A stretch of DNA of 64,000 nucleotides from Phyllosticta citribraziliensis (GCF_038025025.1 NW_027117338.1:248001-312000), one strand, 5' to 3'; positions 23,342-37,000 are shown, numbered from the stretch's first letter. Notes: generated by a model from the sequence alone, not told the origin. Numbers and translations: made by a program.

Positions 23342-24607
23342 GCTATGGCGTGACGAGAAAAGAAGCGAAAAAGGGGCTTGTTTCTGGCCGTGTCATGATT
23401 ATGGCGCTATGATTTGATCTGGAGGCTGCATGGCATTGCATGTGGCATACTACTCACACCCCTTTTGTGGTTCGTGGGGGAGAGAGAGGGGGAAGAACGC
23501 ATTCTTGTCGATATGATTGCTTGCTTGCTTGTTGTTTGGCGACCCTTGTGCTGGGTGCAAAAGACTTGCTTGCGACACTGTCCTTAGAAGCATTGCGCTT
23601 ACGCCACATTACGAATTGCATCACCATCACCATCATCACCCTTCGTCTTCCTGAAAAGTCGATCTGGTTTCTGCTTCTAAATTTGCGGCCTTGTCTTCTC
23701 CTCGCGTATCAGTATTTGACAGCTCTTATTTCTAATACTATACGCACTATACATGCGCTTCTACTCTGCGCATCATTCGCCGCCTAGCTTTCATCATCCG
23801 TAGGCCACCAGCTGTCCCGTTGCTTTTGCCTATGTAGCAACCATTTCTTCTCTCACTGGCAGCAGCAGCAGCAGCAGCGCCACCGCTGCCCATCCCGCGG
23901 CTGAGCGCGTAGGTGGCTGTAGCTAGCAGCGTAAGCATTTTGTCGATCAAGCACAAGCGCTGCGCGGGAGGGGCGTCCATAGCGGGTGGATGTAGAAAGA
24001 AAGGAAAGCTAGCACTGCGTATACGCTGGGAGCAGTCGTCCGCCAGCAGCACAGTCAGCGCTTAGGCAGCCAGGCTGTCGTCCATCAAAAAGAAACCAGC
24101 CAAGCGAGCAGCAGCACAGCCAGACTCGAACGCCGGCACGCGCACTTTCCTATTCGGGTAGCCGAGCGCCTGCGGCCGGTCACCGCACGCCGCGGTGCAG
24201 ACTAGTGGCAAAAGGCAAATGGCAAAAGGAAAGGTGAAAAAGGAAATGTACCAATTGGATAGGAACACCAATGTTGGTGCTCCTATCCAATATGGGGTTT
24301 GGTGTTGCGGAGGGGGGTTATATGGTGAGCTTTGGAGGTAGGAGGGAAGGAAGGAAGGAAGGAGTGGGGTAGGTGGTCTGCTGCTCTCTTCATCACTGTG
24401 CGTTTTGAGTTGGTTGGAGCTGCTGAGGCCCATGGTCTGTGGTGACAATAGAAGGGAGTCTGTAAATGGAACATCGTGACTTGTCCGCGGAAACTGTAAC
24501 GTGCGGAAACCGAGATTGGATGAGATGAAAGGCTGGATATTGCTGAAGGAGTCGCAGATACGGAGCATCCAGTTCCTGAAAGTAAGGAGGGTCGGATAGG
24601 ATCTAGA

Positions 24608-24633
24608 TTTTTTTTTTTAAAAAAAAAAAAAAA
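24608..24633. repeat. T11-A15 homopolymer junction (self-complementary)
   Basis: T at 24608-24618 is directly followed by A at 24619-24633. Confidence 0.9.
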
Positions 24634-25620
24634 TGGGCAGTGAGGTTTCGCACCCGCCCGACAATCGGCGGGGCCTGCCTTTGTAGTGATACATTCCGGG
24701 CATCAACGGTTGACGGAAACCAACGATGGTGGGCAGAACGAGAGCGGCAACCACACCCGCCGTTGGGAAACGGTGGTGTTTATAAGAGGAAGTCAAAAGA
24801 AGAATGGAGGAATATTAACTCGACAAACTCTCAACACGACGAATCCGTATTCGTATGCAGACGCGAAAGTGGTCGGTTGTGATGGTGTTGTAACTCGCCC
24901 TATCCCTGTGCGCATCCCATCCCGACTACAACACCTCCAGTCCGCTCCCGCCCCATCTCCCCACAAAACTGATCCACGTCTCGCAAGAATTTCCTATGCC
25001 AACCGCACCTTTCCTGCGCCGAATCGGACGACTCCACCGCCGCCGCTCCCGAGTCTCCGAGCGCAGAGTTCAGCCTCCCGCCGCCCGAGCAGCGGTGGCG
25101 CGATTGGCTCCCCGCGGTAAGACGACGTGCAACACCTGCACTCGAGTCAGAGAAGCGAACGCGACGTCCTGACAATGCGGAAGCAATCACGCGTCGCTCG
25201 AGAGCGGTAGCAACTATGGCCCGACTGCAAAGTGTAAGTGAGCCTCTGGCTGCGCGGTGTGTCATACGTTGCGAGGGCAGTTGGGCGCCATTGCAGCAGC
25301 GGTTAGGGCGGCGCGTCAGTCTTTTTTGGCTTTCATGGATGTGGATGTCTCTGCTTGTGGGTGCTCAGGGTTATCGCTTCCGGCTGGGCGATGGACGCGA
25401 TAACGCTTAATCGCGTTCGCACGACTGTCACTTCAAGCGCGTGGCGGCCATCCATGGGGTGATGCGGAGGCTTGGTCTTCCGCGCAGACCCAGAAGGAAA
25501 GACCCTGGTCAGAGTCATAGGTGAGTACGTAAATAAGGAGCAATCAGTCGAGCTGGAGGTCAATTTCGTACAACCTTCGCCGTACGCCTTTGAGAAACAC
25601 TCGGAATTTGCGTACCAATC

Positions 25621-26596
25621 ATGGCAGACATCTTCCACGCGATGCCTCCCGCCGCCAGCACTGTCGCCATCTGGTTCCACTACCGCCGCCTCGCCTCGAC
25701 GTGGTTCCCCAACTTCTTGCTCAACCAGGACTCGCTGGTGCCGACGCTCTGCGGCGTCTTGTGGATGGCTATCGGCGGTCACTTTGTCGGGAAGTCGCTG
25801 TTTGGGCGCAGACCCAGGATGGCGATGCGCTGCTCGGTCGACTCGGGCCCCAAGGTGCGGCCGTTGCCGGAGATGGTGCCAAAGGGCGTCCCTGGCGAGC
25901 TGTATCGCATTTTCAGACCGTATCTCGTTGTGGAAGGGGGATGCGCGCCGCTGCCGGTCGTGGATGAGGAGGGGAGTACGGGGTGAGACTACCAAGATCT
26001 TTCACGGAGGACGTCACCATCACTGGTACCTATTTATCTATTAGCGCAGGACTTGCTGACCATGTCATGGCAGATGCGGATTCGCGCCGCCAGACGAAGA
26101 GTCATCCGACTACTTCAGCGACAAGGAGGGACAGGTCTACGTGCGCTCCGGCTGGCACCGGCACCAGTTCGCCATCATGTACGCGTGGTACTTCCACAGC
26201 ATCAGCCACTGCCACGAATGGCAGGCCGCCGTCGTCTGGGTGCGCGGCCCCAACCACGACCGCCCGACCATCCGCGGCGTGGCCTTGACCAAGAGCGGCG
26301 AGTGGGTCAAGACGAGCACGCCGCACCTCGACGGCACACACGTCCTCGTCGAGCACTGCAATAATGACCCGCTGCGCGATGGTGACGGCGACCGCTTCCT
26401 CGAGTATCAGAGCAACCCGCTGCTGGGCCATGGACTCACCACCACTCCTGTTAGTGGCACATCCCATCCTATCGCTGCCTGGGAGTGTGTTCCGCAGGCG
26501 ACCAGGGATGCGCTGCAGAACATAGACTTTGGCCTCGCGCGGGTCCCTATCATAGACGGCATCTTTGAGAAGATGATTGAAGAAGCATTCTTTTGA
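25621..26596 (+). CDS. Divergent Nep1-like protein (NPP1 domain), about 294 aa; intron 25983-26073
   Basis: FRPYLVVEGGCAPLPVVDEEG, GQVYVRSG, AIMYAWYF, SHCHEWQAAVVW (degenerate GHRHDWE), HPIAAWE..PQATRDALQNIDFGLARVP. The branch point GCTGAC at 26055 supports the in-frame acceptor at 26073. Confidence 0.85.
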
Positions 26597-26755
26597 TTGT
26601 CTGGTATCAAAACTTCGTAATGACCCGCCTTCGACCGTCCTTCAAACCATCGCGTGCCAGGGGTATTATTCCGCCCCCAAAAACGAACCGCAAAATCCCT
26701 CCGACCCGCCGTCTAGAATCTTGCCGACCAACAAGTCGAACATCGTCGCTGCGTT

Positions 26756-28135
26756 TTAGCCAAGGGCGAACCAGTAGTGCTCCGGGATCGGGTTCATATA
26801 CTCTGACGTCTCGTCGTCGGCGTCGTAGTCCAGGTCGGCCATTCCGTCGTAGTATATCTGGAGTGAGTAGTACAGCTTCACGTCTTCTTCCGGCTCTCCA
26901 AAGAGGCGGCGCAGGTTGAACGAATCTTCGTCTTCCAGGTCCTTCGTCTTCTTCCGCGGGTCGTAGAGCAGGCCGAGGTAGTACGCCTCCTCGTCCTCCC
27001 ACGCGTCGTCCCTGACCTCCTTCCAGTCGGCCCTCGCCAAGGCGAACAGGCGTAGCAGGTGGCACGAGCGATCGCCAAACACGTCGCCGCTCTTGGTCCT
27101 CGGGCCGTACAGCAAGTCGAGGTAGAACGGCTCCTCCTCGTCTGTCTCGACGCTCGTCAGATCCGACACCGACTGCGAGCCCACGACGCCACGGCCGGGC
27201 ATGTTGCTCAGAGCCGGGCCCCAATTGCCATCGCTGTCCTCGTCGACGGGCTCCGGGACGGCGCTGAGGTCGTAGCCGGCGGCGCCGGCGCGGATGCAGC
27301 CCTCGACCCAGTCGGCAACGTAACCCATCCACTCGCAATAGCCGATCATCAGGTCCGACACGATGTAGCCGTCGGCGTGCGCGACCCAGTCGCCCGCGCT
27401 CGGCGGCGCCACGACGGCGCAGCGCGGCACCTCCGGGTACGCGCCGTGGTCGACGTAGTACTGCTTGTAATGGGATTCGAGGCCGCCGCCGCTGCGCCGC
27501 GCGCCGCGCCACGGGTACAGGTAGAAGCGGTAGACGCGGTTGGGTTCGCCGGGCGCCAGCTTCGGGACGTGCACGACGACGTCTTCGGACAGGCCGCCGC
27601 GCGCGTCGCGCAGGAGGGGCAGGTAGTGGACATGATTCTCCTCGCCGGGCTTCGTCTTCAGGTCCGGCAGCGGGGGGAGGTGGTACGGGTCGGGCTTTGG
27701 CGATGGATTGAAGTGCGGCCACTCGTCGCCACCCTCGAGGTCCTCGACGATGTACAACTCTGCGTTGTACGGGGTGTTGACGCGCGTGTGGATGGTCCAG
27801 ACCTGGCTGTGCCGGGGGATGAACTCGAACGGGTGGTAGAAGGCGCGCATGCGGTAGCTGTAGGGGTGGACGCTACGTTGGAACTCGTACTCGGGGAAGA
27901 AGTATATCATGTTCCGCGCTGAGGCGTCGGGGCCGATGGCAAAGAACGAGCGCACGCCGGCGTTGCTGGCAATCTGCAGTTGGACATGTTCTTCAATTTC
28001 CAGCTCCAGTCCGCCGATTAGAGCCGTGCTGGAATGGTCTGCAGGCTGGATAGCTGGAGAGCTGGGCGAAAGCGTCTCGGTGGACGTTGCGTCGCTGGTG
28101 TCGCTGGTGTCGGCTGAGGCGTCGGATGATGACAT
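26756..28135 (-). CDS. Hypothetical protein, 459 aa; paralogue of 28556-29860; acidic Tyr-rich repeated C-terminus
   Basis: Long intronless ORF with strong GC3 bias that shares four motif blocks with its neighbour. Confidence 0.75.
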   Translation of the reverse strand: MSSSDASADTSDTSDATSTETLSPSSPAIQPADHSSTALIGGLELEIEEHVQLQIASNAGVRSFFAIGPDASARNMIYFFPEYEFQRSVHPYSYRMRAFYHPFEFIPRHSQVWTIHTRVNTPYNAELYIVEDLEGGDEWPHFNPSPKPDPYHLPPLPDLKTKPGEENHVHYLPLLRDARGGLSEDVVVHVPKLAPGEPNRVYRFYLYPWRGARRSGGGLESHYKQYYVDHGAYPEVPRCAVVAPPSAGDWVAHADGYIVSDLMIGYCEWMGYVADWVEGCIRAGAAGYDLSAVPEPVDEDSDGNWGPALSNMPGRGVVGSQSVSDLTSVETDEEEPFYLDLLYGPRTKSGDVFGDRSCHLLRLFALARADWKEVRDDAWEDEEAYYLGLLYDPRKKTKDLEDEDSFNLRRLFGEPEEDVKLYYSLQIYYDGMADLDYDADDETSEYMNPIPEHYWFALG

Positions 28136-28555
28136 GATGGGCGCGTCGCGGAGGAGTGCTGGCGAGCAACGAGATGGAGAACGACGCTGGTTGAAGTTGA
28201 GAGGGATCGCAGAAGGTCAGGCAAAAGTTTCCAAGGAGTTAGAAGGGCGCATCTCTTCTCGGCGTTGTGGTGTCGTCAAGTGATGGGTTCGTGACGCACA
28301 CCGCTGGTTCCCACGCCGACGCGCGCACGACGACTCATACTCTTTCCCGACCCAAAACTCGAGACCGTGAACCAGCGCGAGAAGCGACAGCTATGCTGAG
28401 CTTTGCTGAAGGGCTTGCGCAACAGGAGATGCGCACGTAGGGAAAACGGGGTTCAGGGGTAAGCTGATCGAAGAGGCCAACCCATGGTGTTGACTTCTCC
28501 GCAAAACACCAAGACGCAAAGAGACAAGGCACCAGCCAGAAACACAAGCAGCAGC

Positions 28556-29860
28556 TCAAGACAACAAGCGATCCACGAAGAAAGCAAAAGGCTCAGCAGA
28601 CTCCAGGAAGCGCATCAAGGCTCCAGCAACGTGCATCAAGCCACCAGCAGCCAGAGCTCCCAGCACCACCGCCAACACACCCAAGCCCAACAGCACCACC
28701 GCCCGCGCAACCGCCGCACAAACCTCCAAAACGACTACGACGGCGCCGAAAACCGCGACGCCAAACGCCCACACTTCTTGCAGCGTGGCCCAGAAATCGG
28801 CCGCGGCCTCCGCGAGCGCGGGCACGACGTCGTCGACGATTTTGAACGAGCCGCGCGCGACGACGTCGATGGCCAGACTGCCCAGGGCGAGGAAGAGGAG
28901 GAGGTGGACGCCGCGGTTGCTCGCGACGGCGTCGATGGCGGCCCAGAATCTGCTCCGCTCGTCGTCCTTCTCGGCCATCAGCGGGAACGCGGGCTCCAGC
29001 CCCGCCGACACGGAGCGGTGCCAGGAGCCGCGAAGCGCGGCGTCGATATCTATGTCGGCCGGACGAAGCGGCAGCTGAAGCGGCAGCGCGTCTGGAGCGT
29101 TGCCTTTCGTGCCGTCGCTGCTTCTGCTGCGCTGCTCGTGCCACGACGTGACGCGCGCCCAGGTGCGACAGGCGTCGATAGTTGATCGGGGGAGGCGGAC
29201 GCCGCGCAGGTCGGCGAAGCCGTCGTATGCGGCAGGCGTTTTGTCTCCGAACGGGGCGAGCGGCGCGGTGGGCGCGACGACGGCGCCGCGGACGAGATAT
29301 TCGCCACGCAGCACGGCGCCAGTCGATAGGTGCGGGAACGCGCGCGCGACGCCGCTGTCTTCGTCCGCTGGGGCGCGCGGGTATTGGTAGATGCGGTAGA
29401 TGCGGTTCCATTCGTGCGGGGCCAGGCGCGGGACGACGACGTGGATCGTTTGGGAGGGAGCGTTCGCGGGCTGGTCTGCCTCGGTAGAAGTATTCGTCAG
29501 GCGGAAACGCAGGGAGCGCGCGGCCAGCAGGTCGTGAGGGTAGTCAAAGGATTGACGTATGTTCGCGGTGTTGCGGAGCAGCGGCCACAGAGCGGGCTCA
29601 ACGGCTTCGTGGATCAGCACGTCGATGGGGCCCTCTTGGGCGCGGATGTGAATGGTCCATATGGGGTGATTCCGGATTGGCTGTGGTAGTGTATCCGTTC
29701 TGTAGGTCGTATAGCGAGAGTTCGTGTAGTTGGACGACGAATATGGCACTTTGGGGAACAAAACGAAGTGGTGGCGTAGATGGCCATCGTGGCCGATGCT
29801 GAATGCTGGATCTGGGAGGGTCGTCAGATGGGAATTTGCGAAGCTTGCGAGTGAAGCCAT
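28556..29860 (-). CDS. Hypothetical membrane protein, 434 aa; paralogue of 26756-28135; hydrophobic C-terminus
   Basis: Long intronless ORF; shared WTIH and VVP(R/K)LAP.E.NR.YR.Y.YP motifs; predicted TM segments after about aa 325. Confidence 0.75.
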   Translation of the reverse strand: MASLASFANSHLTTLPDPAFSIGHDGHLRHHFVLFPKVPYSSSNYTNSRYTTYRTDTLPQPIRNHPIWTIHIRAQEGPIDVLIHEAVEPALWPLLRNTANIRQSFDYPHDLLAARSLRFRLTNTSTEADQPANAPSQTIHVVVPRLAPHEWNRIYRIYQYPRAPADEDSGVARAFPHLSTGAVLRGEYLVRGAVVAPTAPLAPFGDKTPAAYDGFADLRGVRLPRSTIDACRTWARVTSWHEQRSRSSDGTKGNAPDALPLQLPLRPADIDIDAALRGSWHRSVSAGLEPAFPLMAEKDDERSRFWAAIDAVASNRGVHLLLFLALGSLAIDVVARGSFKIVDDVVPALAEAAADFWATLQEVWAFGVAVFGAVVVVLEVCAAVARAVVLLGLGVLAVVLGALAAGGLMHVAGALMRFLESAEPFAFFVDRLLS

Positions 29861-30283
29861 GTTGGCTGGTCAGTGGCGCTGTGGAGTGTGATGAGACGAG
29901 GCCGCTGAAGCTTGGGAGACTTGACGACTCGACATCTCGGCTCTGGGTCTTGGACAAAGAGGGACGAAAGAAGCATCGCGAGGAACAAAGAGAAGTGACA
30001 AAGGATGGCTGGATTTAGCGACGAGCGGCAAGTTGGTGTTCTGAAGACGGAAATGGACGGGGTTCTTTGTTCGTGTTCAGACAAGGCGAACACGTCAACT
30101 CTGCCGACTCTGTTGGAGAATCAGCACAAACACGAGCGAAAGAAACACACAAGACCGTTTGTGAAATTGGAGTTGCTTTACTATTCAACAGGGTACAGCA
30201 TCTAGTAGCCCTCTACTCCAAGTATGAAAAACGATATGAAGGTTTGCGGATGACTTCGCAGCGTGTCGCAGCAAGACAACCGC

Positions 30284-31100
30284 TCACGACTTATCGAGGA
30301 CAAACCAAACCATGAAAATATGCCGTTCAGTTTCCCTATCAAACGTCAGCTTAACCGCAGGGGTAGGGGCTTACCTTTGCTTCCTCGGATTACAAAGAGG
30401 AAGAGCGACGCCGCGTTTTCCGTCGCTGTCTAATTCTTGATTCGGAAGCGCTAGGATGTCGTGCTGTTGTGGTATGCGTCAGCAGGAACAGAAAGAGGAA
30501 AGGAGAGAGGGGGGCGGGAGGTAATGGAGAGGGAGAGGGGGGTTCGATACAAACAAACACTTACCTGCTCCACTGCCCCATCCACGGGATACGACCACGC
30601 CGGTAGGATTATCGAATTAAGTGGTGGTCGACGATCGAAGCGTGTCAACCTACTCTCCGTCAGCTTTCTTTCAATTCAATCCGCTATCAAAGCAAACAGA
30701 CAAAGCGAGGGAGAGGAGGGGCGCGACTCGAGACTCACAATCCACTTGCCGACAGCTCTTTCGACGGCCTCCGACTAGTCTTCTTCGTGGAATGGAATTG
30801 AGTATCCTACACACGTTAGCATATCTCAGGGGCGGGGGCTTACCTTCTCTCTTTCTCTCATTTTCTGTCCTCGGTCCGGCGAATGCGACGTACCGTAGTC
30901 GACGTACAGGCGTTTACGCGTCGGTCGGTCGGCCAGGTCGTCGTCTCTACCTACGACACATTAGCCACAAGCACCGGGAGGGGGGCCTACCTTTTCCTTT
31001 TCCAGGGCGCAAGTGTCTACACTCAATCGAAGCGGGCGGCGTGGTGCAAGCTGTTGTGATGTTGTGAAGCAGCCAACGCGCAACCAGAGCGTACTTATAC
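30284..31100 (-). other. Cryptic five-intron transcription unit (lncRNA or 103-aa spliced ORF, 30861 to 30284)
   Basis: Minus-strand introns 30951-30990, 30807-30843, 30650-30738, 30464-30564 and 30336-30374, each with a GT donor, a GCTRAY branch point and a YAG acceptor; TATAAG at about 31094-31099. Confidence 0.6.
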
Positions 31101-31423
31101 AACCACCACCCACACATTGTTCAAGCGCATTGTCAACGCGACAAAGGAAAACCGCATTTTGTTCGCTATCCGCTACGGAAAGGAAAAAGGGAGAGGAAAA
31201 GCAACGCCATTGTTTTAGTCCGGAGCCGCACTCGCGTGCTTTCTTTGTCCAATTGCGCCGTGTCATGGACAAAGCCGGCTGTGGACTAGCTTGCTGGTGC
31301 TGGGATGATGGGTGAATGGGATGGGATGGATGGGCGACTTGATGCGCCCCGCTCGCTCAAATGCTCGCTCGGATGTAGTGCAATGCCACGCCACGCCACA
31401 AGATGCTGTGTGGGGTGGACCGG

Positions 31424-31464
31424 TCAAATCAAATCAAAATCAAATCAATCAATCAATCAATCAA
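31424..31464. repeat. (AAATC)/(AATC)n microsatellite
   Basis: tcaaatcaaatcaaaatcaaatcaatcaatcaatcaatcaa. Confidence 0.85.
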
Positions 31465-32049
31465 TGCAATGCCTTGTGAGTAGGAGTAAACCGCTGAAAA
31501 ACGCCATTGTGGAAGCGCCAGGTCGTCGGCCGGCCTGAGGTCGGCCGTTCACACGTCGTGAGAATGTCGCTCCGGGAAAACGAACGAACGCCAGTCGATG
31601 ATGAATAAAGAAAAGTCCGGTGGGCATTGGTCCAGTCCAGTCCAGTCCAGTCCGGTGATGCTGGATGTCGAGTTTCCAAGGAAAGTGAATCGCCATGTTT
31701 TGTGGGCCCAAGGTGTCTGTCCAAGACGAGTGGAGTCGCAAGTCGACACTCTGCTTGGGCGAAAGGAAGAAAAGAGAGTCGGAACGCAGAGACTAAAGGA
31801 AAATGCAAAGGAAAGGCAAGCGTGAAGACTCCTTGTTGGAAAGAGTCGCCGGCACACTTGCTGAGCAATGAGACTTTGAGACGAAATCGCGGGGATCCCG
31901 TTGGAGTTTTGGGTGCGCTAGATGGCCGTCCGTGTTGATCAGAACTTGTGCGGGTAGACGAAGCGAGGACGGGGCGGCGCGGGAGGGTCGGGGCTGGTGT
32001 ACCTGGTATTGTCAATCGCAATCATAGTAGTGGCAGAGGCTTATTCAAC

Positions 32050-34074
32050 TTACGGCTGAGACCGAAAAGCACCAGGCCTGGGGTCGAGGTCACCCTTGCT
32101 GTAGACGTCGCGCGGACCAGGCTCAAGGGCATCGATCAAGTCGGAAGGGAGAAGGCTGTGCTTGTCGCGCTCGGCCTCCTCGTCGATCTGGTGCATGGGG
32201 TACAAAATGTCGTACTCGGTCGGAATCTTCCACACCTGGTCGAGCGGCTGCTGATGGACCACGGGCAGGTGGTTCCAGGGGACAGCGCCGTTGGTGGGCT
32301 CGCGGGGCAGAGGCAAGAAGCGCTTGACACCTGTGCGCGCGCGGTCATCGCCCTCCCACTTCATCTCAGACAGCGTCGGCCAAGACGCGACGCGACGGTC
32401 TGGAGTCTTCCAATCCGGGCACCAGATGGTGGGCAAGCCGAAAACGGCACCGTGGCCAGGCTGCCTGTTCTTCATGTCCCAAGTCGGCATGACTGCCGCC
32501 ATCTGGTCTTGCCTCTCGTTCTCGCGCGCAAGAGCCCGCTGCTCCATGTCCGCAATCTTGCGCTTCTCTGCCTGGAGCCTGACGTTGTGCATGGCTGATT
32601 GGTGTCGAAGCCAGGAGCCAAAGTCCTTGATGGGCTCCATGATGTCCTTGTCGTACTTGCGAAAGTTGCGACGAACACCAATCTGAGCAACCTCGTACTG
32701 CTCTTCCTGACGGCATCTGTCCGAGACCCAGACCTTGCTCGAAGTATGACCGCCTCCATACTGAGTGTCATTGCCCTCACTGGAATTGTAGGGAACGACG
32801 GATTGAGCCGGCTCAGGTGTGTATGGTGCTTGAGGCATGCCGTCACCCAAGTCGAAAGCAAGGCGACGCTCAAGAGGCTTCTGGCTGGTCTTGTTGAACT
32901 CGTTGTGGTTGGTAGGCTGGCTATCCTGGACACTTGCGGTGTACGACTCGTCGCGGGCATAGGAGCTGTCGCGGCCACGGCTCATGTCCTGGGGATAAGG
33001 GAAGTCTTGGGCGATTGCAGAAAGCTGGTGCTGAGACTGCTGGGAGTTCTGAAGGTGCTGGGCGTTTTGGAGGCGCTGGGAGTTCTGAAGATGCTGCGAG
33101 TTTTGAAGACGCTGAGAGTCCTGAAAGCGCTGAGAGTCCTGAAGGCGCTGAGAGTCCTGAATGCGCTGAGAGCTCTGCATGTGCTGAACGGTCTGCATGC
33201 TTTGCAAGCGGTGCAGATGCTCCGTACCCTGCGTCGCCGTGGGCTGCGGAGTTGGAGTCTGGTTCCACGCCGTCGGGGAAGAGTACTTGCGGGGCGCAGA
33301 AACGACTTCATCAGCATGCATCTGGGTCAGACGTGCCTTGAGTCCACTGGCAACGGAATCGTAGTCGCGCCGAGGCGTTTGCGGATGCACGATCCTCTGG
33401 GCGTACTGCTGGGCGTACTGAGGATGGTCGGCACTGCCGATGCTCTCAGCGTGCGTCCTGTAGCTGGCGGAATCGTTGAACGGTGGCGAGATCTCGAATG
33501 CATCGAGAGACTTGGCAATGCCCTCAACTTCAGCTTGCATTCCATGATCCAGCGACTTGCCTGCGTCCTGGAGGTATCGCGGAAGGGTGTTCACCGCTGC
33601 CTGGGCAGTCGGGGTGTGATGAGCCTGGCGAGGATTGTAGATGCCCTGGCCATTCTGAATGCCGTGAAATTGATCAGACGGAGGAGAGTACTTGTAGGGC
33701 TGCTGACGTGGACCACCAGTCTGGCCGAAAGTGCTCTGTTCATGCTGTCCGCCGTGAAACTCGGAAGGGGCAGAGTACTTGCGGTACTGCTCCGCGTACG
33801 GATTGAAGGCTCCGGGGCCTCTCTGCAGGCTGCGAATCTGCTCAGAAGGAGTGTGTCTTTGGTTCTCAGACTGGGCGTCGCCGTCGCGGTACGAAGCCGG
33901 CTGAGAGTACTTGGCCTGCTGGGCCTGCTGGAGGGCGCGGATCTCAGGCAGGTATTGATTGAGCCTGACAGCGTCATAGTTGTTCGACATTTCAGTGGGA
34001 GGAGAGGGAGGCATCGCAAAGCCAAGCGGGGTGCCACCTTGAGCAAAGTTGTGGACTGGCTTGGAAAAAGACAT
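32050..34074 (-). CDS. Hypothetical protein, about 674 aa, with a Q/S-rich low-complexity N-terminus and an ordered C-terminal domain
   Basis: Long ORF with first ATG at 34074 (MSFSKP). The C-terminal ASWPTLSEMKWEGDDRARTGVKRFLPLPR resembles a conserved Pezizomycotina domain of unknown function (recollection). Confidence 0.8.
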   Translation of the reverse strand: MSFSKPVHNFAQGGTPLGFAMPPSPPTEMSNNYDAVRLNQYLPEIRALQQAQQAKYSQPASYRDGDAQSENQRHTPSEQIRSLQRGPGAFNPYAEQYRKYSAPSEFHGGQHEQSTFGQTGGPRQQPYKYSPPSDQFHGIQNGQGIYNPRQAHHTPTAQAAVNTLPRYLQDAGKSLDHGMQAEVEGIAKSLDAFEISPPFNDSASYRTHAESIGSADHPQYAQQYAQRIVHPQTPRRDYDSVASGLKARLTQMHADEVVSAPRKYSSPTAWNQTPTPQPTATQGTEHLHRLQSMQTVQHMQSSQRIQDSQRLQDSQRFQDSQRLQNSQHLQNSQRLQNAQHLQNSQQSQHQLSAIAQDFPYPQDMSRGRDSSYARDESYTASVQDSQPTNHNEFNKTSQKPLERRLAFDLGDGMPQAPYTPEPAQSVVPYNSSEGNDTQYGGGHTSSKVWVSDRCRQEEQYEVAQIGVRRNFRKYDKDIMEPIKDFGSWLRHQSAMHNVRLQAEKRKIADMEQRALARENERQDQMAAVMPTWDMKNRQPGHGAVFGLPTIWCPDWKTPDRRVASWPTLSEMKWEGDDRARTGVKRFLPLPREPTNGAVPWNHLPVVHQQPLDQVWKIPTEYDILYPMHQIDEEAERDKHSLLPSDLIDALEPGPRDVYSKGDLDPRPGAFRSQP
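33039..33200 (-). repeat. 18-bp coding tandem repeat, about 9 copies, encoding (Q-D/N-S-Q-R/H-L)n
   Basis: gctgagagtcctgaaggc-type units with period 18. Confidence 0.9.
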
Positions 34075-37000
34075 GTTCGTTTGATGAGGGTAAACTTTGT
34101 TGATAAGGTGAGACCAATGCACCCCGAGCAGGGAAGAGCGAATGTTGATGCTCGTGCCTTGCCAGATGGCGAAGAGATGCGTGGTCAGGTGGTAGAGGTG
34201 ACGTGGAGAGATGTGCGTGGTCAGTTGTGGTGAGCGTGATCTCGAGCTTTGGCTCAAGAAGCCTGCTGTCAAATGGCCCAAAAGTCAGTTTGATTTCCAC
34301 TTGGTCTTCAGTAGGCATGATCTGAGCCTGGCACCCAGCTTTGCTTCGGTTTGGGCCACTTACCTTCGATGTGGTTGGTGAATCAAGGCGACTGGATGCA
34401 AAAGAACCAAGCCGTGGTGGGTAAATCAAGTTGGATGGGAGGAGGAAGGAGTCTCAATGGTCAAGACTGCAGCAGTCGTATCTTGACAAGCAACCAATTC
34501 GTAGGGTTGCCCGCAATTTGAGCTTCGAGATGGTCAGCTCGCACTTCAAGTTTGCTCTTGCAGTGTACCTGCCTCAGTAATGCTGTGCCAGTGGATAGAG
34601 AGCCTTCCTTCGAGGGTGGTTGTGGGTTGAAGAAACAAGGCCTGAAGCTGGTTGGGATAGAAGCAATTATAACAGGTGCGAACAAAATTCCCTGGTAGAG
34701 CAGGTGGTGTCAGCCACGGCTTTGCGAAGTGCGGCAAAGCGCGATGATGCGAATTTCGCTTTTGCGGCTGGAGGAGGTGCAACTTACAACTACCACGCTG
34801 GTGCGTGAATACAACTCCAAAAGTCTTCCTGTCCAGCTCGTCAGCAACAAACCCTCTCGCACCTTGACACGACTCTGGCGCAGCGGTGAAGTCTGCCAGG
34901 GAAGAGATACTGAAGCGCAGCACGGTGTTGAGGTCACAGTAACGCGATGCCGTCAAGCCTCAGGAGTGAGCCGGCATGCAGAGACGACGCGCCAATAGCT
35001 TGCGGCAGGGCTTGGTGACCTCCTCGTGACACTCAGCGACAGCATCAAATGGGCTGCGCAACCCGGCAACTGCGGTGGTGAATGGGGGAGATTGGGAGAC
35101 TTGCAAGCACATGGCTGAATTGCAATCTGAAGAGGCACAGAGGAAGACACAGGGGCACGACTTACCACGCCGTTACAGAGGACCAAAGGTGGGAAAAGTA
35201 TTTTGAGGATGAAGGTCAAAGTCGATCAAGCAGACCAATATGTTGTTTACGCACAGTCCTCCCCTTGCGATGCAGGCGGTCGGATAACGGAAAAACTGGC
35301 CCGGAGGAAAATGCACGTGGATGGTGTTAAAAAAGGAGCAAATGTGGTAAATGTGACAATAGGTGCGCGAGACAAACAAGACAAGGTCATGACGACTGGA
35401 AAGATGGAAAAGGCATCTGGATGCTTGAGCAGATTCTTGCGCGATGGTAGTTCAGAGATGCCGTCCATTGGGAGGCTTCATCGTCTACCTTCTATAGCAG
35501 TGGTTGTGGTTCGCTGCAATGGAGACTTGACTTCCAACTACTTCAGCAGCCAAGTCGAGACTGCACCTTGGCAAAGGCATCGACTCGAGGTTTCAGGTGG
35601 GAGATAATCCACGGGTGTCTGGACCTTTCTCGAAAAGAAGAATGACGGAGAAGGAAACACAATCTTTTGTTGCTCCCGTGTGCTCGGTCCTTGTAGACAA
35701 AAAGTGACTTTTGTCGCGTAAGCATACTCGAAGGCGTGGTTACGAGGCATGGGACCGACGCCAGAAAAAGTCCATTCACCAGGAACGGCCCTCTCTTGGA
35801 CGAGGGCGTCTCTACAAATGGCCTTGGCTGAGCGAAGGACTCTCATGAGCAGCCGTGGCGGAAATACGGGTTGAAGGCTGCTGAAAGTCGGCGGAGCTCT
35901 TGTCGAAGAGGGCGACTGGAGCAGGGCGAGGCAGACAGCGGGCGACCTCGACTCGCGGAGCGACCGAGTGCCAAGTGGGTTTGAGTCGAAATGTCTCGTC
36001 TCATGACATGGGAAAGTTGGATGGGCCTTGAATCATTCATGGCCGCGTGAGTAGAAAAGGCTCGAAGGTCGATGATGAGCAGAGAGCGGGCGAGAGCTCG
36101 AGCAGGACAAAGAAGCAAGACATGTCTCTGGAAAAGGCGTCAGTCGACACGCCAGCACGATGGCCAGAGAGGACTGGTGGTGATGTTGCCCGTACGATGG
36201 AGTGCATGGTACAGGTAGCTGACGCGGCTGAGATGGAGGCTAGGTATGGGGAGAGATGCATGAGAGCGAGGGAGCGAGGTTGGGTTGGGTTGGGGTGCGG
36301 TCGAGGTGCAGCAACAGGATCTGCGGGCGGGCAGAAGTCACGGCCAATCAGCGACGTCGTTGCACAGAAGAGAAGGTCAGGGCAGCAGAGGGGAGCAAGC
36401 GCTGGGTCACTTGACGGAGAAGAGGAAAAAGAAAAGGCCTGGCTCCCTTGCTTCGCATACCGACACCTCCATCGACGACCAGCACCAACACCAGACATGG
36501 CATCGTGATTGTTGTAGCTACCTAGTGCTAGCAGAGGGTCAAGAGACGGCATCCCGGTCGCACTCCACTGGCGGCATGACGTTGGATTGGCGCCAAAACA
36601 GGGAAGCTCCACTCTCACCGCCGACATACAGTACGCCTTTAAAGGCCCTCGACGCCCACTTTTTGGCCTCCATCGCGGGCGGCTCTTCCAACGTGGAGCC
36701 CCCGCGCCCTCCCGTCAACACCAGGCCGACAATCAACAAAGGAACAGAAGCCGTCATGGCCGCCACGCAGCACCGCGACCCCGCCACTTGTGGTAGAGTG
36801 GTCCACCCGCTGTCGTGCTCCCACGACGCTTCACTTCCGCCCCATCACGCCTGGTCTGGAGCCCACCAGCAAGCAGACGACGACGACGACGACGACGACC
36901 TCAGCGCTTAGCAAATTAACCCTGTACACTCGCACTGGCGCTGTCTGCTTGCTGCACTGCTCCCTCTGGCCGACGCCAGACCGGCCGCTCCGCAGAGAAA

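Follow-up and report, generated by a model that had tools for sequence, protein, structure and literature searches.

The minus strand between position 29861 and about 31000 of the 64-kb window (the whole stretch of Phyllosticta citribraziliensis DNA analysed here, 64,000 nt) probably specifies a long, spliced 5' leader that belongs to the mRNA of a downstream 434-aa gene and in which three ultrashort intron-like elements stay unspliced. The arrangement belongs to a known kind, the long, spliced leader rich in upstream ORFs, of which this locus is an unannotated case, and its residual curiosity is that three related modules with perfect splice signals are left in place. An earlier note, made from the sequence alone, had described positions 30284 to 31100 as an apparently empty region hiding a transcript of its own with five introns, either a young orphan gene or an intron-rich lncRNA. 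The outcome is a caution for annotation: a perfect intron grammar and an open frame obtained in silico failed to predict the RNA, and what had looked like a hidden gene is, on the reading we favour, the leader of the next gene.

Intron-like segments on the minus strand

Reading the sequence from 31100 down to 30284, we found five GT..AG segments, all on the minus strand, and a TATA-like box (TATAAG, 31094-31099, minus strand) that is a putative promoter element; the segments, the box and the lengths of the short introns are all as the earlier note had listed them. Three of the segments are very short. Element 1 (30951-30990, minus strand, 40 nt) reads GTAGGC...GCTAAT...TAG, element 2 (30807-30843, minus strand, 37 nt) reads GTAAGC...GCTAAC...TAG, and element 3 (30336-30374, minus strand, 39 nt) reads GTAAGC...GCTGAC...TAG. 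The two longer segments, also on the minus strand, are one of 89 nt (30650-30738, GTGAGT...GCTGAC...TAG) and one of 101 nt (30464-30564, GTAAGT...GCTGAC...CAG).

All three short elements share one design, in which a GA-rich run ending in AAG is followed by GTA(A/G)GC, a C-tract, GCTRAY-GT and a terminal TAG. Their splice signals are near consensus, each lies at an AAG/G site (the slash marking the 5' boundary), and a GCTRAY branch box stands 9-10 nt before the TAG, giving every element both the GT..AG ends and the branch box by which a spliceosomal intron is recognised. The spacing from the donor to the branch A is only 27-29 nt.

The longer introns are removed and the short elements retained in RNA contigs

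The RNA evidence consists of assembled contigs from two public runs (X1 and X2) that come from two studies; neither run is recorded as RNA, so that the type is a guess for both, and the spliced joints in the contigs are its sole support. Such contigs show the dominant path, so that they report presence and not absence and minor isoforms are invisible in them, and a contig that spans two genes, or a leader and a CDS, is no proof of a single molecule, as overlapping transcripts assemble alike.

Four joints were present in the contigs, all of them CT..AC on the plus strand and hence GT..AG on the minus strand, and these spliced contigs of X1 and X2 support the transcription of the minus strand that the earlier note had proposed. 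The 89-nt joint 30647/30737 ("skips 89, CT..AC (cut +2)") and the 101-nt joint 30463/30565 ("skips 101, CT..AC") occurred in both X1 and X2, marking the 89- and 101-nt segments as true introns. Another joint, of 72 nt (30109/30182, "skips 72, CT..AC"), occurred in X1 only, and the X2 piece 29274-30463 was colinear across it. It defines a further intron at 30110-30181 (minus strand, GTAAAG...GCTGAT...CAG), which is spliced in X1 and retained in X2 and is therefore alternative or inefficient. The last joint, 51 nt at 32003-32053, was found in X1 and X2 and belongs to the upstream gene.

Excision of a short element, by contrast, was seen in none of the covering contigs: three of three elements were retained in X1 and two of two in X2. 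X1 was gapless over all three (pieces 30737-31999 and 30182-30463), and X2 was gapless over elements 2 and 3 (pieces 30737-30944 and 29274-30463), element 1 being outside its cover. The proposal of five introns thus stands for the 89- and 101-nt introns, removed in both runs, and fails in the contigs for the three short ones. Two GTACGT sequences that had been offered as alternative donors at about 30893 and 30907 are the product of a 14-nt tandem duplication (CGACGTAC..., 79% identity) at 30886-30913, and no joint in the X1 or X2 contigs uses either of them.

At its 5' side the X2 contig (1481 nt, depth 19, running from 30944 to 29274) starts at 30944, with the TATAAG box about 100-150 nt upstream of this first X2-covered transcript base. 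Element 1 is at or upstream of the contig's 5' end and may coincide with or precede the start site. The X2 depth is 0 over 30980-31381, which is no evidence of silence.

Element size offers a candidate reason for the retention. Introns seen in the RNA measure 51, 72, 89 and 101 nt (a small sample), and those that reading frames suggest in coding sequence in other parts of the window, 12 heuristic candidate rows, are all at least 51 nt, against 37-40 nt for the short elements. We infer that the small size makes spliceosome assembly inefficient: with so short a distance from donor to branch, the spliceosome would rarely or never complete on the 37-40 nt elements, which would consequently remain in place as pseudo-introns or very weak introns. 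Such a size-limit account of retention draws on what is generally known about spacing in the spliceosome and on very few introns of the present organism.

RNA contigs run into a conserved downstream ORF

The X2 contig is unbroken from 30944 to 29274 and so comprises the leader plus 587 nt of CDS; this contig sets the minimum extent of the transcribed 5' leader at 29861-30944 (minus strand). The 72-nt joint of X1 bridges the end of the region first described (30284) to the proximal leader. That region is accordingly neither empty nor self-contained, as had been assumed, there being a sixth intron at 30110-30181 beyond its end and a transcript that continues into the downstream ORF. Measured from 30944, the leader is 894 nt long with two introns out (the X2 form) or 822 nt with three out (the X1 form). 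It carries seven upstream ATGs, and its upstream ORFs range from 6 to 50 codons, one of them overlapping the main ATG. The leader is unusually long and rich in upstream ORFs, and it has three true introns, compared with one at most in the majority of the window's genes; together, these features suggest post-transcriptional control of the 434-aa gene. From the seven upstream ATGs and the upstream ORFs, the long leader isoform would be expected to be poorly translated, and the retained elements would keep the leader closed in all frames.

The gene that follows is an intron-less ORF of 434 codons on the minus strand (28556-29860), with its ATG at 29860, its stop codon at 28556-28558 and a GC3 of 0.77, and the X1 contig is colinear over all of it. 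Aligned along 100% of its length as the query, the protein shares 56% identity with P0001, an uncharacterised Phyllosticta citriasiana protein; its identity to a protein derived from Logan is 50%. A search of 1.84 billion representatives yielded only two relatives, so that the family is a very narrow one of Phyllosticta type, with a hydrophobic C-terminus. Pfam returned 0 families for the three neighbouring proteins searched (the 434-aa protein, its 459-aa paralogue and the product of the upstream gene), and the ESM Atlas gave no usable match with the 434-aa protein. Judged by its homologues and its composition, the 434-aa ORF can be called a real, conserved, lineage-restricted gene. A second intron-less minus-strand ORF, of 459 aa (26756-28135, also given as 26759-28135), stands in tandem with it, and the two are diverged paralogues (26% identity, E 2e-11) whose common motifs include VVVPRLAP..NRIYR.Y.YP.

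Homology to P0001 begins at M106, which aligns with M1 of the 434-aa ORF, and a stop codon is found directly upstream of the ATG-bearing frame of this ORF. In a tblastn comparison with the N-terminal extension of P0001, residues 18-56 matched a segment of the proximal leader at 29967-30089 (minus strand) with 51% identity (E 4e-8) and an in-frame stop in the window, and the remaining parts of the extension gave weak matches in other frames. Given the in-frame stop and the shifting frames, the proximal leader is conserved as DNA and not as protein, and residues 1-105 of P0001 may be an artefact of the gene model rather than protein.

The same contigs can be read in another way, which we regard as unlikely. 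An independent spliced lncRNA would start at about 31000 and overlap or read through into the gene's promoter and 5' portion, the mRNA of the gene would start proximally, and the lncRNA could possibly regulate the downstream gene by transcriptional interference. This would accommodate the X2 data at the 3' side, where the depth-19 contig ends at 29274 and the depth is 0 over 28434-29237, inside the CDS; a full-length mRNA of leader plus CDS is unsupported in X2, and the abundant RNA need not span the CDS. The break at 29274, however, falls where the sequence is very GC-rich and is often poorly covered by short reads, although a genuine 3' end there is possible. The stretch of about 250 nt that precedes the ATG is conserved with the P. 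citriasiana locus, as would suit a proximal promoter or UTR, and a transcript with seven upstream ATGs makes a poor mRNA. Set against these points are the unbroken continuation of the contig for 587 nt into the CDS, the 72-nt intron that joins the distal and proximal parts, and the colinearity of the X1 contig with the whole ORF. This X1 contig is a single assembly of 11,050 nt at depth 184 that covers the window from about 24400 to 35800 and bridges several minus-strand genes and their spacers with the introns removed, which suggests overlapping or read-through transcription of co-oriented neighbours in that sample. Since it bridges neighbouring genes, its continuity says little on transcript units. 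Of the lncRNA that the earlier note had considered, what survives is that the stretch is non-coding; a free-standing transcript is not supported, as an RNA contig joins the stretch to the downstream CDS.

The four leader exons and the three short elements showed no secondary structure beyond that of shuffles (z -0.77 to +0.63), and the short exon stems to which attention had been drawn (CGACCAC/GTGGTCG) are no better than shuffles on the same measure. A scan for bacterial promoters and terminators gave counts equal to those of shuffles and is irrelevant to a eukaryote.

The short elements resemble one another beyond chance

The motif GTARGCCCC occurs three times in the 64 kb, both strands counted, and each occurrence is one of the short elements; 0.44 were expected, and one of 100 shuffles reached three. 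Within 29800-31500, the 26-nt 5' part of the three elements forms the top direct-repeat family (73-77% identity). A loose grammar for introns of 35-44 nt had seven matches in the window, none on the plus and seven on the minus strand, four of which (at three loci) are the short elements. Mean pairwise identity among the elements was 0.706, compared with 0.642 +/- 0.027 in shuffles that preserved the splice signals and composition, and 16 of the 2000 shuffles reached the observed value. Finally, the five intron-like segments account for 306 of the 817 nt of 30284-31100 but contain all eight of its runs of at least four C. These five tests agree that the look-alike design of the elements is beyond chance. 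The similarity extends over about 10 GA-rich bases of upstream flank and no further.

Such mutual similarity suggests local duplication of one intron-like module, and the three elements are probably paralogous copies of local origin, in keeping with the shared design and possible duplication that the earlier note had put forward. The C-tracts might alternatively be STRE/CreA-type DNA sites serving a proximal promoter; this is less likely, as the conserved letters are splice signals. With three unspliced modules of 37-40 nt, the leader offers a natural experiment, if a small one, in how short a fungal intron can be and in the local duplication of intron modules.

The 103-codon frame depends on excision of retained elements

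Removing the 37-, 89-, 101- and 39-nt segments in silico gave a 103-codon ORF, reproducing the 103-aa frame that had been reported to open when introns 2-5 are taken out. With element 2 retained, as in both RNA-supported forms, this ORF stops after 11 codons, and the retained sequence also brings in another upstream ATG, the second. When the spliced model was shuffled 5000 times, 98 of the shuffles gave an ORF of 103 aa or more, so that the length of the frame is slightly unusual yet unremarkable given the choice among splice options. Its composition differs from that of coding sequence nearby: GC3 is 0.52, against 0.77, 0.87 and 0.70 in three neighbouring ORFs, and the codon log-odds is -0.157, against a minimum of 0.214 over all 104-codon windows of three neighbouring genes. 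On the plus strand, the stop-to-stop frames at 30621-31067 and 30455-30778 (GC3 0.52 and 0.56) are not coding-like either. A contiguous 74-aa frame that includes one of the exons found no candidate sharing words with it among proteins of 40-130 aa. As the ultrashort elements stay in the RNA, the 103-residue protein is most likely not made. If the region is a leader, splicing out elements 2 and 3 now and then would turn the first upstream ORF into the fused 103-codon ORF, a by-product and not a gene.

We consider it quite improbable that the short elements function as minimal introns with low-level or conditional splicing, which would switch the length of the first upstream ORF from 11 to 103 codons and back and thereby tune translation or decay. 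Near-consensus splice signals at three AAG/G sites would be expected of such introns, as would C-tracts like those of the two true introns, and the frame that opens for 103 codons upon their removal is one that the shuffles matched at the frequency given above. The contigs are blind to minor isoforms, and the 72-nt intron, removed in X1 but kept in X2, shows that splicing within the leader varies. Retention in every covering contig of two studies, from which the adjoining 89- and 101-nt introns have been removed, speaks against working introns, as does a size below that of all further introns that the window's RNA joints or reading frames indicate; element 1, moreover, possibly lies at or before the X2 start site. 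If the elements did work in this way, the leader would hold a translational switch operated by splicing, in which an upstream ORF of 11 codons becomes one of 103. It is similarly doubtful that they are newly multiplied minimal introns, one module having been copied locally into AAG/G sites, which stand at the organism's lower size limit for splicing and are excised at a low level or conditionally. Were that so, the locus would present intron birth free of coding constraint and a natural series for the minimal spliceable intron of a filamentous fungus.

A young orphan gene of five exons and 103 aa can be set aside as very improbable: four removals do yield the ORF, of a length that only 98 of the 5000 shuffles reached, but neither X1 nor X2 contigs contain the splices 30807-30843 and 30336-30374 that it needs, retention leaves a stop after 11 codons, both GC3 and codon log-odds fall outside the range of the neighbouring genes, the exon-bearing frame has no words in common with any candidate of 40-130 aa, and the RNA goes on into another gene.

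Comparison with known systems

A spliced leader of the 434-aa gene, the reading that we prefer, has its closest architectural likeness in the LUTI-type leaders of budding yeast. In PMC8829799, LUTIs are mRNAs extended at the 5' end that are translated poorly and are able to repress the promoter proximal to the gene. Here, too, a leader of several hundred nucleotides precedes a normal ORF and contains many upstream ATGs (seven), the leader and CDS are contiguous on RNA contigs, and the upstream ATGs and ORFs lie in the extension. Unlike those leaders, the present one has three spliced introns, and the likeness is one of architecture alone.

Intron retention and introns in UTRs are described for Cryptococcus neoformans (PMC5006051) and Fusarium graminearum (bioRxiv 10.1101/2021.11.08.467853). 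The locus shares with these the presence of introns in an untranslated leader, of which the 72-nt one is spliced in X1 and retained in X2. It differs in its three mutually similar segments of 37-40 nt, which the dominant RNA keeps in X1 and X2 alike; these may never be spliced, and would then be pseudo-introns rather than retained introns. Our literature search found no figure for the minimal intron length of filamentous fungi that applies to this group.

Introner-like elements (ILEs) of Dothideomycetes were a further comparison, since the earlier note had suggested that the short introns might be of this kind. As described in 2012, ILEs are reportedly multi-copy families spread across many genes and have a stable predicted structure. 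The short elements come from the same fungal class and are likewise self-similar, intron-shaped sequences at AAG/G-type sites. They are, in contrast, 37-40 nt long, number three copies in one leader and are unexcised in the contigs. No structure signal was detected in the three (z 0.00, 0.20 and -0.33), no further GTARGCCCC copy occurs outside the leader in the 64-kb window, and a metagenome scan with a pattern of 23 specified bases that matches elements 2 and 3 returned 0 loci. PMC4457414 calls ILEs long compared with regular fungal introns of 50-55 bp, whereas the elements are shorter than these. By these tests, with copies sought in the 64-kb window and in the metagenome scan, the term introner-like is not supported for the elements.

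Host genes of snoRNAs resemble the locus in being non-coding, multi-intron transcripts with short exons. The snoRNA scan that the earlier note had advised for the longer introns was run, and an Rfam E-value scan of 27000-35000 contained no snoRNA; by eye, no C/D box was seen in the 89- and 101-nt introns. Matches to MIR528 (E 1.7) and NPPA-AS1_3 (E 4) are at chance level, with 16-21 bits against gathering scores of 55-62, and were rejected.

The upstream gene and adjacent repeats

On the upstream side, the 51-nt intron at 32003-32053 (minus strand) has a GTAAGT donor that supplies the in-frame TAA ending the plain ORF at 32050. After splicing, the upstream gene gains 21 more residues and stops at 31939, for a length of 694 aa from its first ATG at 34074. 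This leaves the space from 31939 to about 31000 for the 3' UTR of the upstream gene and for a promoter. Between the upstream gene and the promoter of the leader lies a microsatellite-like (TTGA/TTTGA)n run (31424-31470), which was left out of the read mapping as a repeat. Inside the upstream gene, an 18-nt tandem repeat (33039-33177; 7.7 copies, 82% matches) encodes a glutamine-rich peptide repeat of the Q(D/N)SQRLQ type.
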